Part shown: positions 10,317 through 31,376 of the stretch, piece after piece
Position numbering within the stretch: the first letter of the stretch is position 1
Layout of the letters: each line of letters begins with the position of its first letter
IMG/VR virus record: IMGVR_UViG_2913167280_000003
Location: 27,299 to 91,298 of that record
Reading direction: 5' to 3' (one strand)
DNA from: a virus
Lineage: Duplodnaviria; Heunggongvirae; Uroviricota; Caudoviricetes
DNA length: 64,000 nt
Program-made: the position numbers and the translations under genes
Notes under the pieces: model-generated
Databases searched by the model: none
What the model saw: only the letters and a program-made list of their open reading frames with translations
Told to the model about the DNA's origin: nothing

Positions 10317-10489
10317 GTATTTTTAAGTCGCGAATGCTATCTTTTCGCATCATATTGACCTTTTAATCGTTCAGGCTTATAGTTCCGCCGTCGTAGCAAA
10401 TTCTGCGACCAGGTTTGACAGCCTGAAAACTTACGCGGACAACCGCACATTTCCGATATTGCGGTATTTTTGTGTCCGTAAAACCACGT

Positions 10490-10575
10490 TACGCCCGAAT
10501 TATGGTGGGGCGTGATGGGGAGGCTTCGGCCTGCTGGTTTCGTAAGTGCCAGTCTGTCAACCCTGTCACGTCCTG
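10490..10575 (+). ncRNA. c4: c4-like antisense RNA (immI repressor RNA); exact ends not determined
   Basis: Contains a' CGTAAGT (10541-10547) and b' CTGTCAA (10554-10560), complementary to b1/a1 (TTGACAG 10415-10421, ACTTACG 10429-10435) and b2/a2 (10584-10590, 10612-10618); a2 overlaps the icd RBS. Confidence 0.55.
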
Positions 10576-10629
10576 CCACCTGTTTGACAGCGGGTCGCAG
10601 GTTGTTTATCAACTTACGAGGCCGTAACT

Positions 10630-14019: not shown

Positions 14020-14201
14020 TACAATCGCTGCGGGTGCTTGAGGCTATCTGCTTCAGGCACTACCCGACAAGCAGATAGAAGAAAGCCCCAGATAACATTA
14101 CGCGTCCTGCAAGACGCTTAACATTAATCTGAGGCCATATCTATGCTTAGCATACGTAGATTAGCCCTCTCCCCTTTTTAGGAGCAAGGAATTTTTTACT
14201 G

Positions 14202-14834
14202 CTATGCCGCCTTTCCAATTATGGATTCAGCGACCAGAACAACCCCATGCTTACTTCTATCTGGGTGTTCACTCCATATCTCGGATTCAGGAATACTTAC
14301 CCCGTCATAGCAAACACGTTCGCCGTCAAACGGGTAATACTGAGCGGCATCGGTGTCGAGGATAAACACTTTTAGCTCGGAAGAGCGACGGGCGATGTGT
14401 TGCCAAAGAGCTTTTCCACCTTCGTATTGCTCATTATCACTGAGCAAAACAACACCAGCTTTTGAGGCTACGGTTTCGTAAACAAAAGTAGCTAAACCGA
14501 CATCCCGGACGGTTCCATCAACCACGATACCTTCAATCTGGGCAACATCGCTATCCTCCCAGAACTTCCTTACAAGTACGCCTTCAAGCTGCGGGCGACG
14601 TTGAAGTTCAAGAGTAGCGACAACCTTATGGCGCATATCACCATCGATAACAGAAGGCGCAGCCTCTATTACAGCTGCAAATGGGGTTTTGGAATCCCAT
14701 ATAACCTGGTAAAGCACACCCTGGATGGTAACTCCGTCCAGGATCGAAAATCGACGAGCGACAGTACCCGGGGAGTACGACATTGGAATCACAGCCATTT
14801 TAGAGTCCCCCTTTAACAGTACAGGCACAAACAT
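14202..14834 (-). CDS. hypothetical protein (210 aa; possibly starts at internal Met MAVIPMSY)
   Basis: ORF in track; no motif recognised. Confidence 0.45.
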   Translation of the reverse strand: MFVPVLLKGDSKMAVIPMSYSPGTVARRFSILDGVTIQGVLYQVIWDSKTPFAAVIEAAPSVIDGDMRHKVVATLELQRRPQLEGVLVRKFWEDSDVAQIEGIVVDGTVRDVGLATFVYETVASKAGVVLLSDNEQYEGGKALWQHIARRSSELKVFILDTDAAQYYPFDGERVCYDGVSIPESEIWSEHPDRSKHGVVLVAESIIGKAA

Positions 14835-30232: not shown

Positions 30233-30698
30233 CAGGGTTTTCGTCATGGTTAGCGACTTTGCGGCGGTTTAGAAACTGACCATTAAAGTAAATGCAAACG
30301 ATGATCTGATGATGGTAGCGGCCTAAGAAGCCTGACGCCACGGGGTATGAGTCGTCCCCCGTCAAAAAATCGACCGCAGAGTGTCCCCGTCTGTGTATTA
30401 GGGAACGGGGAGGCATAACAGGCAAGGGCGCTGGTTCGATTAACCAGATGAGCGAGAAGGGGCCATCTCTTTGGTCAGCGTCCTTACCTGTTACGTCCTT
30501 TTTCATTCGGCGTAACAGCAATTGCTTTTAGTAATTTGAGGATAATTTCTTACTACGGGTATATCCCGTCATGCTGAAAGCGCTAATCACGCTGGAAGCC
30601 AGGGTTATGCATCCCCTGTTACCGAATTGCAGCTAGGGCGCGGTGCGCCGAAAAGCATACGGAGGTGGAAGCCCTCGCCGGAGACGTACCCGGCAAGT

Positions 30699-30741
30699 GA
30701 TGGTGTAGCTCAGCGGTTAGAGCGTCTGCCTTGTAAGCAGT
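30699..30741 (+). tRNA. 5' portion of a tRNA-Thr(UGU)-like gene (acceptor 5' strand, D-arm, anticodon arm)
   Basis: GATGGTG-TA-GCTC-AGCGGTTA-GAGC-G-TCTGC-CTTGTAA-GCAG: canonical D-arm and anticodon loop CTTGTAA; sequence then diverges from tRNA. Confidence 0.4.
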
Positions 30742-30750
30742 GGGATACTG

Positions 30751-31170
30751 ATGAAAATTTGTAGCAAATGCAAAGCACTAAAACCTGCTTCCGATTTCCA
30801 TAAAAACAAAGGAAAGAGCGATGGCCTGCAAAATATTTGCAAGGTGTGCGCCAAGGAAAGAGATGCTCTGAGTTATGCAAGCAATGAATCAAGGCGCCGG
30901 CTTATAAAGTTAACAAGAACGAGAAAAACAAGCTCAAACCGTCAGTTTTTATCTCGTTATAAACGCTTCATCGGGTGCCAAAATTGTGGAGAAAAAGAAC
31001 CTATAGTTCTGGACCTCCACCATGATAACCCTGGCGGCAAAGAAGGCGATCCTTCTAACCTATGTAGTCGATCTCGAAAGCGACTTAAGGAAGAAGTAAG
31101 GAAGTGCATTGTCCTCTGTGCGAATTGCCACAGAAAAGTCCACGCAGGTTTATTGGATATAAAGAAATAG
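30751..31170 (+). CDS. HNH endonuclease (139 aa) with N-terminal Cys-rich zinc-finger-like region
   Basis: HNH motif (LDLHHDNP...NLCSRSRKRL...CANCHRKVH) and CxxC pairs (CSKC, CKVC, CQNCG). Confidence 0.7.
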   Translation: MKICSKCKALKPASDFHKNKGKSDGLQNICKVCAKERDALSYASNESRRRLIKLTRTRKTSSNRQFLSRYKRFIGCQNCGEKEPIVLDLHHDNPGGKEGDPSNLCSRSRKRLKEEVRKCIVLCANCHRKVHAGLLDIKK

Positions 31171-31202
31171 CTACGGCGGTTCAATTCCATCAACCATCAC
31201 CA
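31171..31202 (+). tRNA. putative 3' portion of the same tRNA (T-arm, acceptor 3' strand, CCA)
   Basis: GGCGG-TTCAATT-CCATC T-arm (4/5 pairs), AACCATC pairs 6/7 with GATGGTG at 30699, discriminator A, encoded CCA. Confidence 0.3.
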
Positions 31203-31376
31203 TATACCAATGTGATGATTCTGCCGGTACGACTCTGACATCTATTCCTCGAAACGGAGTGCACAACAGATAAGAGCATTTGTAGAGTTCGACTCTCTAC
31301 CGTGGGCTTTTTCCCGCGATGTGCGCCATAGATGCTCTTTCCGTTGTGGCGAATGCGGCTGAGCGCACGCGGGGAG

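Follow-up and report, generated by a model that had tools for sequence, protein, structure and literature searches.

The 64,000-nucleotide stretch of DNA analysed here (the window) comes from a P1-like phage (Punavirus). Its segment 30233-30698, which lies between a terminator-like hairpin and an interrupted transfer RNA (tRNA) gene, begins with a member of a conserved and unannotated phage RNA family, hereafter the element. The RNA consists of two halves: a 5′ domain that is antisense to the host transfer-messenger RNA (tmRNA, the product of ssrA) and a 3′ half that resembles the message part of a tmRNA. The features described below are collected in Table 1.

A sensitive blastn search with the segment as query returned its first ~190 nt (30235-30425) from 322 phage records. 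Only 20 P1-like genomes covered the whole query, the other records matching the first ~90-190 nt at 70-85% identity. Carriers included P1-like, lambdoid, N4-like Gamaleyavirus (ECBP1), Ackermannviridae (phiEa2809, PS5), Vi1-like and T1-like phages as well as Drexlerviridae (SG01), Deseoctovirus C1, Jedunavirus, Roufvirus and more. They infect E. coli, Salmonella, Klebsiella, Erwinia, Cronobacter and others, and the match always fell inside unannotated gaps. A search for an exact pattern across the conserved part gave at least 120 IMG/VR contigs, but of 185,579 species genomes only 4 contained it, indicating that the element is phage-borne and not a bacterial tmRNA. It was present in 660 of 5,426 complete E. 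coli genomes (12%), with 582 copies on P1-like plasmids and 140 in chromosomes, none of them annotated, and in 621 plasmid records. In E. coli chromosomes the copies belong to lambdoid prophages, where they immediately follow PR′/6S RNA/tR′ in the interval that separates the antiterminator gene Q from holin S. Lytic phages have a consensus promoter (TTGACA-17-TAGATT or similar) ~10 nt 5′ of the element, which is therefore a separate RNA gene in these genomes and has no space for an acceptor strand in front of it. PGAP, GenBank and Rfam do not annotate the element.

In P1 the counterpart of the segment is the start of the C1-controlled ban operon: window positions 30020-30724 are 93% identical to P1 68674-69373 (97% in SJ46). 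The P1 annotation lists, in order, the dmt stop, P1ban/P2ban with the operator Op72, a 'dicF-like region', ~455 unannotated bases, trnA and trnT. Our segment is precisely this unannotated stretch, and the original prediction had placed it correctly; it begins directly after a terminator hairpin with its U-run (to 30232) and ends 1 base before the 5′ acceptor strand of the tRNA (30699). The terminator hairpin was retained in 37 of 37 distinct P1-like sequences, including L028 and L042, in which the upstream part has been exchanged. Inspection of the interval between this hairpin and the element revealed no sigma-70 promoter, and transcription of the element must consequently be read-through from Pban. 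Conservation across P1-like genomes, which the original prediction had listed among its checks, holds for the segment.

A permissive Rfam scan, which the original prediction had proposed as a check, found no tRNA in the segment but returned sub-threshold matches to two tmRNA models, tmRNA_permuted (24.1 bits against a gathering score of 47) and beta_tmRNA, both aligned exactly on a short reading frame that we term the tag frame. All copies tested at ten other loci gave tmRNA_permuted or beta_tmRNA matches of 23-39 bits at the same place. The tag frame comprised 10 codons and a stop in 131 of 131 copies. These copies represented 38 distinct nucleotide versions, with synonymous changes (GCG/GCU/GCA/GCC, GUU/GUA/GUC, CUG/UUG), both UAA and UAG stops, conservative D/E/N substitutions and an entropy that was highest at codon position 3, followed by positions 1 and 2. 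C-termini were Ala-Ala or Val-Ala, and other tags included ANDDVVLMAA and ANEEMYLAVA. Conventional translation of the tag was considered and rejected. An in-frame UAG occurs 8 codons upstream, there is no AUG, GUG or UUG and no Shine-Dalgarno sequence, and the only in-frame near-cognate codon is CUG, all of which makes ordinary initiation unlikely; an overlapping AUG frame varied in length between copies. The role of U85/A86 in E. coli tmRNA is established. In the element, the A-rich spacer in front of the resume codon showed no indels in 30 of 30 diverse aligned sequences (columns 53-64) and kept U(-5)A(-4); its constant length of 12 nt compares with 11 nt in E. coli tmRNA.

Covariation supports the structure around the stop codon and downstream of it. 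Both helices of the H5-like hairpin, which holds the stop codon in its loop, were paired in most copies (99% and 87%), and all four outer pairs showed changes on both sides. The loop of the first pseudoknot covaried (CCGA/UCGG, CCAG/CUGG, CCAA/UUGG, GUCG/CGAC), as did stem 2 of the second pseudoknot in the P1/N4/phiEa class (GCAGA/UCUGU, AUGGA/UCCGU, GUGGU/ACCAU, GUGGA/UCCAU, GGAGU/ACUCU). Over a 30-copy alignment, 89.9% of cells in the core structure were paired, compared with 33-47% when partners were slid; 15 of 23 pairs carried double-sided changes and none of 500 shuffles was as good. The 'structured RNA' of the original prediction was thus well founded. The segment folds with a minimum free energy of -174 kcal/mol (z = -3.15 versus dinucleotide shuffles), although the real proof is the covariation across phage families.

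The element possesses neither PK1 nor PK4, and the region upstream of its message is instead the antisense domain. This domain is strongly conserved, yet it lacks convincing internal structure. Its target in host tmRNA spans the 3′ half of PK1, the frame-setting nucleotides A86-C89, the resume codon G90 C91 and tag codons 2-6. RNAduplex paired the domain from the window with real E. coli ssrA (L138) over 38 bp at -46.3 kcal/mol, including two 13-bp helices with a 1x1 mismatch between them. All 43 distinct domain versions began pairing at tmRNA nt 54-57; pairing ended at nt 102-108 in 38 of them and at nt 129 in the remaining five, with a median of 38 bp and energies of -36 to -50 kcal/mol. Relative to dinucleotide shuffles the duplexes reached z values of -3.6 to -7.3 in six of the eight families tested, while two Ackermannviridae queries gave -1.4 and -2.6. 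When L016 and L004 served as queries, ssrA outscored all 352 background pieces save the element's own complement. No further segment antisense to tmRNA rose above background in 30080-30750.

In the alignment of 30 copies, invariant columns coincided with the paired blocks and variable columns with bulges. Wobble allows each of the phage variants, GCGAC, GCGGC or GCGAU, to pair with AGUCGC (opposite G87 U88), the N4-type UUAU lengthens the pairing to U85, and an Ackermannviridae insert, UCGUCGU, is complementary to ACGACGA. We compared the target with tmRNAs that adjoin smpB in Pantoea, Mixta, Hafnia and two metagenomic enterobacteria. It was almost invariant across these Enterobacterales, which explains the near-invariance of the phage domain. 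The one polymorphism, G61/U61, was matched by CUGACC/CCGACC versus CAGACC (Erwinia phage) and CGAACC, with energy differences in the expected direction. At the positions that the domain targets, the element's own message differs from that of the host (AAU GCA...GAU GAU versus GUC GCA...GAC GAA AAC), and it accordingly pairs poorly with itself (-30 versus -46 kcal/mol with host tmRNA). A helix CTTTG/CAAAG was tried as a substitute for PK1 and discarded, as its register shifts between families and it breaks in L038; these nucleotides are better explained by the tmRNA-pairing blocks.

The element has no tRNA-like domain and is hence not a tmRNA. At default settings ARAGORN called no tRNA or tmRNA in the window and no tmRNA in ~130 related loci, and Rfam detected no tRNA-like domain in the whole window or beside ten other copies. 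None of the candidate acceptor-like stems contained a conserved G3:U70. We evaluated several ways of completing a tmRNA and rejected each. Closure by an upstream X′ strand and a downstream X strand of the 'X module', an inverted repeat found next to the core, would yield G3:U70, but the upstream strand is missing from P1, C1-type and other loci, and compensatory changes in L070 support two local hairpins instead. Acceptor stems built from flanking X strands, a downstream 'B' domain or Kuttervirus domains were neither universal nor equipped with G3:U70. A permuted gene with an upstream acceptor piece found no T arm upstream, where the 'dicF-like' part is replaceable; GUUUUCG x CGAAAA failed as a universal closing helix, its partner being confined to P1 and loci with an upstream X hairpin. 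Finally, tmRNA calls made by ARAGORN at 80-90% of its default thresholds used 5′ strands at chance level, one of them within a promoter.

Other phages do carry tRNA-like modules together with the element. In Salmonella phage PS5 (L131) two tRNA-like domains of 101 and 125 nt lie 3′ of the core (1386-1486 and 1492-1616); in both the T arm is perfect and CCA is encoded, and both are without an ARAGORN call or an annotation. Two IMG/VR siphovirus contigs (L105 and L109) carry, at about +255 to +340 from the core, a 'B-type' domain with canonical D and T arms and the acceptor UGUGGUG/CGCCACA-A-CC, in which a ~75-nt insert replaces the anticodon arm; decayed 'B-type' domains occur in lambdoid leaders, lambda included. 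At about +270 to +330, the lambdoid-type loci L016, L014 and L045 show a T arm followed by CAGCUCC-ACGA (compare the E. coli tmRNA 3′ end, CAGCUCC-ACCA) and GGAGCUG ~25 nt further on, an arrangement that looks like the decayed tRNA-like domain of a permuted tmRNA.

Table 1. Positions in the window of the element and of the features that flank it.
Feature	Position	Strand	Sequence, pairing or remark
Terminator-like hairpin	30207..30232	+	GCCCATCTTCGGGTGGGC + U-run; from terminator scan; closes 'dicF-like' ban leader RNA, directly 5′ of element
Antisense domain	30236..30281	+	Block-wise complementary to host tmRNA nt 57-105, colinear, antiparallel
Antisense block	30236-45	+	GGUUUUCGUC; pairs tmRNA 96-105 (tag codons)
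Antisense block	30249-51	+	Pairs tmRNA 93-95
Antisense block	30253-58	+	GCGACU; pairs tmRNA 86-91 AGUCGC (A86 to resume codon G90 C91)
Antisense block	30259-65	+	UUGCGGC; pairs tmRNA 74-80 (PK1 3′ strand)
Antisense block	30268-73	+	UUUAGA; pairs tmRNA 65-71
Antisense block	30276-81	+	CUGACC; pairs tmRNA 57-62
A-rich single-stranded spacer	30282..30293	+	AUUAAAGUAAAU, 12 nt; U(-5), A(-4) before resume codon
Tag frame	30294..30326	+	GCA AAC GAT GAT CTG ATG ATG GTA GCG GCC TAA = ANDDLMMVAA*
H5-like hairpin, stop codon in loop	30313..30340	+	30313-15/30338-40 and 30320-22/30330-32
First H-type pseudoknot	30340..30374	+	Stem 1 30340-45/30357-62; loop 30351-54 GUCG x 30371-74 CGAC
Second H-type pseudoknot	30376..30411	+	Stem 2 30376-80 GCAGA/30390-94 UCUGU; stem 1 30384-89 UCCCCG/30406-11 CGGGGA
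'X module' long hairpin	30415..30494	+	ATAACAGGCAAGGGCGCTGG 30415-34 x TCAGCGTCCTTACCTGTTAC 30475-94; 18/19 bp; inverted repeat
Two small hairpins	30487..30540	+	30487-95/30511-18 (overlaps X′, alternative pairing) and 30520-25/30531-36
P1-lineage 3′ segment	30553..30698	+	Hairpins 30555-59/30565-69 and 30678-81/30690-93

The best explanation for this combination of parts, to which we would give an even chance, is that the phage RNA binds to host tmRNA, where it covers the tag template of the host and presents its own, or at least blocks host tagging. In the fuller version, which we hold to be possible at slightly short of even, phage RNA and host tmRNA would form a chimeric tmRNA assembled in trans, so that Ala-tmRNA-SmpB would add a phage peptide to the products of stalled ribosomes. 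The RNA would be made in lytic growth. In P1, transcription would read through from Pban, which C1 controls; lambdoid prophages would use PR′ with antitermination by Q, and lytic phages the consensus promoter that belongs to the element itself. The RNA would then anneal to host tmRNA, opening PK1 (nt 49-78 in E. coli tmRNA) and burying the A86-C91 resume region together with the tag, while the phage resume codon would be presented 12 nt from the end of the duplex. In this two-piece tmRNA assembled in trans, SmpB and a tRNA-like end charged with alanine would come from the host and the template from the phage. Rescued ribosomes would add the phage tag (ANDDLMMVAA here) in place of ANDENYALAA, or host tagging would at least be blocked. 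A template swap of this kind would explain the missing tRNA-like domain (TLD), the conserved tag frame and the fixed spacer together. Phage tags retain AAND, but have lost the Tyr and the LAA end of ANDENYALAA, and going by established work on SspB/ClpX the handling of tagged proteins would be expected to change.

A number of observations weigh against this proposal. We know of no case in which a template merely base-paired to tmRNA is decoded. For the RNA to form in P1, the terminator 5′ of the element must be read through. The duplex statistic of the window is modest (z = -3.6 for dinucleotide shuffles and about -2.4 for a 50-nt tile), and for its G/U-rich domain two unrelated background pieces of the 352 scored equal to or better than ssrA; the antisense case rests on the colinear blocks and on family-wide consistency. 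Host-phage compensation is suggestive, as G61/U61 is the one polymorphic position and the matching change comes from a single Erwinia phage. In the centroid fold of the free RNA the 5′ motif GGUUUUCG can pair internally with CGAAAAGC (30649-56), and the RNase E CLASH tables and supplements that we searched contained no hybrids with the element. The imperfect 38-bp duplex could also be a plain substrate for RNase III, in which case the outcome would be silencing and not a swap.

Such silencing is the main rival explanation, though in our judgement an unlikely one. A pure antisense RNA against tmRNA would block the resume codon or trigger RNase III cleavage, and host tagging would be shut down; the tmRNA-like half would never be decoded and would serve stability or mimicry of tmRNA partners (S1, SmpB, RNase R), or be a leftover. 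The complementarity evidence applies here just as well, and two 13-bp helices with a 1x1 mismatch would be plausible for RNase III. Phage antagonists of small RNAs (anti-sRNAs) are an established class at the same lambdoid prophage locus, and a non-chargeable tmRNA fragment from phage DS6A has been reported to inhibit host tmRNA (PMC4131195). However, silencing leaves unexplained why a frame of 10 codons and a stop persists through 38 nucleotide versions with third-position and conservative changes, and it gives no reason for a spacer of fixed length with a fixed U(-5)A(-4) context. We regard as improbable an autonomous phage tmRNA with an unconventional tRNA-like part (X module, 'B-type', Kuttervirus CCA domains or the downstream tRNA) that is charged and brings in the message in cis. 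tRNA-like domains do follow the core in several families (PS5; L105, L109), ARAGORN at 90% of default thresholds assembles tmRNA calls in some loci, and some acceptor-like stems end in NCCA. Such a domain is nevertheless not universal: SG01 has the core alone with one hairpin between open reading frames (ORFs), and P1 has hairpins only. The lack of a conserved G3:U70, the L070 compensations that favour local hairpins over closure around the core, and the chance-level 5′ strands of the relaxed ARAGORN calls, one overlapping a promoter, also argue against it, and the antisense blocks would be left unexplained.

Slimmer still is the chance that the element is a passive structured leader or spacer of a tRNA operon in which a captured tmRNA remnant is decaying, its likeness and complementarity being accidental. 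It does lie upstream of tRNAs in P1 and many other loci, and tRNA-like debris and HNH insertions abound nearby, but many copies have no tRNA within 1.6 kb and many have strong promoters of their own. The core is also far better conserved than its surroundings across unrelated phages, and pseudoknot covariation together with the codon pattern indicates purifying selection. We consider it very improbable that the segment holds degenerate tRNA genes or an origin-like element, as the original prediction had ventured, or else an overlooked protein gene. All three hairpins named in that prediction exist: CGGGTATATCCCG at 30556-30568, CTGTTACG/CGTAACAG at 30488-95/30511-18 and the T-arm-like CTGGTTCGATTAACCAG at 30431-47. 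The last of these could speak for a tRNA, but its T-loop look is confined to the window and SJ46, the motif not being kept in P1, which like most relatives has TGTGATTAA. ARAGORN found nothing, the Rfam tRNA model had no match inside 30233-30698 even at E<=10, and a weak match to it appeared only at 30706-30762, outside the segment. For an origin we found no iterons, a single 10-nt direct repeat in two copies and a GC content of 52%. A coding role could be read into the two hypothetical coding sequences (CDSs) that SJ46 annotates there and into the sole sizeable ORF, 146 amino acids from a TTG start on the - strand (30081-30521); however, P1 and most relatives have a 4-nt indel that breaks this frame, and the P1 counterpart carries no CDS. 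The + strand contains no ORF of at least 45 amino acids inside the segment and coding potential is low, in line with the earlier statement that no credible ORF is present. The same statement called the segment GC-rich, which is true to a mild degree: 51.9% compared with a window mean of 47.4%, with 18% of same-size tiles equal or higher.

We take the remainder of the segment (30415-30698) as a structured spacer ahead of the tRNA, made up of a hairpin module shared with lambdoid late leaders and then of P1-specific hairpins; RNase P probably separates this remainder from the tRNA that follows, by a cut at the segment end. The X module has a variable 40-nt apex (30435-74), and the T-arm-like hairpin straddles the junction between stem and apex. 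Lambdoid, Ackermannviridae and siphovirus loci have homologous X hairpins on both sides of the core or behind it, the compensatory changes in L070 support them as local hairpins, and L030, a P1-like genome, recombines exactly at X. In phage lambda an X hairpin follows directly after tR′ without the core (L137 487-565, lambda ~44786-44864), where nothing is annotated. The sequence on its 5′ side, CACAACA, is identical to the GcvB R1 target consensus, which AgvB, a prophage anti-sRNA, uses (PMC4104026). A second X module in the window (31263-31349; CACAACAGATAAGAGCATT, an apex with the T-loop-like hairpin GTAGAGTTCGACTCTCTAC, and ATGCTCTTTCCGTTGTGG) is near-identical to one in lambdoid late leaders (L136, L014). 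The zone at 30487-30540 varies among P1-like phages with compensated stems (AAUUGC/GCAAUU versus GGUGCU/AGCACU). The block 30553-30698 is highly conserved among them and has no homologue outside P1-like phages at blastn level and no Rfam match. A long-range pairing of 30407-19 with 30604-16 was dismissed since compensation was inconsistent among P1-like phages.

The tRNA gene 3′ of the element is interrupted. Its 5′ part (30699-30741) bears a Thr (TGT) anticodon arm, at a place where P1 has trnA(Asn) and trnT; similarity to P1 ends at 30724, an HNH endonuclease ORF (30751-31170) parts the halves, and the T-arm/acceptor 3′ part follows at ~31172-31205, with no ARAGORN tRNA call in the window. 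In L044 an HNH-AP2-type homing-endonuclease ORF sits directly behind the second pseudoknot. This insertion and the HNH ORF of the window suggest that RNA arrays around the element are frequent targets of homing endonucleases. On the other side of the element, the 'dicF-like' leader (30080-30232) gave no DicF match in the Rfam scan, and some P1-like phages (L028, L042) have unrelated sequence in its place next to an identical terminator hairpin and core. Other Rfam RNAs in the window, at 10377-10583 and 14032-14206, were those expected of P1 as regulators: the C4 antisense RNA with its a1/b1 targets, an isrK-like match slightly below its gathering score and a sok-type antitoxin RNA.

The message half shares several features with standard tmRNA (SsrA, RF00023): a GCA Ala resume codon after U(-5)A(-4), a 10-codon tag that starts AN(D/E) and ends in a hydrophobic residue followed by Ala-Ala or Val-Ala, a stop codon in the H5 loop and pseudoknots downstream. 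In contrast to SsrA, the element is devoid of an acceptor stem, T arm and CCA and thus cannot be charged; an antisense domain replaces PK1 and helix 2, and two pseudoknots, not three, follow the tag. The best Rfam resemblance (UAAAUGC.AACGAUGA...) is to the two-piece permuted tmRNAs of alpha- and beta-proteobacteria and cyanobacteria (RF01849-51, RF04321), in which, as we propose for the element, a coding piece without the 3′ tRNA-like half functions only when paired to a second RNA. Two-piece tmRNAs, however, derive both pieces from one gene and pair them via the acceptor stem and helix 2, whereas the proposed partner of the element is a complete host tmRNA engaged at PK1 and message, and the neighbourhood of the element encodes no acceptor piece.

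Phage genes that intervene in trans-translation have precedents in the tmRNAs of the mycobacteriophage Bxz1 group and Bacillus phage G and in the DS6A RNA. The Bxz1-group and phage G genes encode complete tmRNAs and the DS6A RNA is the TLD alone, reported to inhibit host tmRNA (PMC4131195, PMC11915505); the element is the opposite fragment, message and pseudoknots, joined to an antisense arm. Surveys of virus tmRNAs list complete tmRNAs or the TLD-only fragment alone, and enterobacterial phages without any. AgvB and AsxR of enterohaemorrhagic E. coli (EHEC) are prophage anti-sRNAs that antagonize a host non-coding RNA by pairing with it and are encoded 3′ of PR′ in the moron site (Tree et al. 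2014, PMC4104026). The element resembles them in its extended complementarity to a host non-coding RNA, and its chromosomal copies occupy the same site, while the P1 copy is in the ban leader. It differs in architecture: AgvB and AsxR are Hfq-bound RNAs of 51-60 nt with a variable 14-18-nt seed and a conserved ~42-nt 3′ terminator region (PMC4104026), but the element is ~190 nt long, pairs with tmRNA over ~38 bp, has a message-like half and bears no sequence relation to them. DicF is likewise a prophage-borne antisense RNA, and the 'dicF-like' stretch belongs to the same P1 leader transcript; this annotated stretch (window ~30137-30238) nonetheless ends at the terminator, and the element lies downstream and unannotated.

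Full-text literature searches (including tmRNA-like, phage tmRNA and ssrA-like) returned no earlier description of the element or its tag peptides, and no natural antisense regulator of tmRNA or RNA that replaces the tmRNA template in trans. To our knowledge no natural antisense regulator of tmRNA is known. Without a TLD and below the Rfam threshold, the element is outside the tmRNA class and likewise outside the anti-sRNA architecture, although it is built from known parts; a trans-assembled tmRNA would, if confirmed, be categorically new. Its occurrence illustrates that tmRNA finders dependent on the tRNA-like domain overlook tmRNA-derived genes. Bacteria rely on tmRNA-SmpB as their main system for ribosome rescue and quality control. 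An element that either blocks tmRNA or swaps its template would explain a non-coding block conserved in P1, a standard laboratory phage, as well as part of the lambdoid 'moron' region, and would provide a model from nature by which trans-translation could be retargeted or switched off. It would also add a new layer of conflict between phage and host over stalled ribosomes, relevant whenever mRNA or tRNA is cleaved by host defences. With a template swap, the fate of proteins from stalled ribosomes would be reprogrammed by phages belonging to at least eight unrelated lineages.

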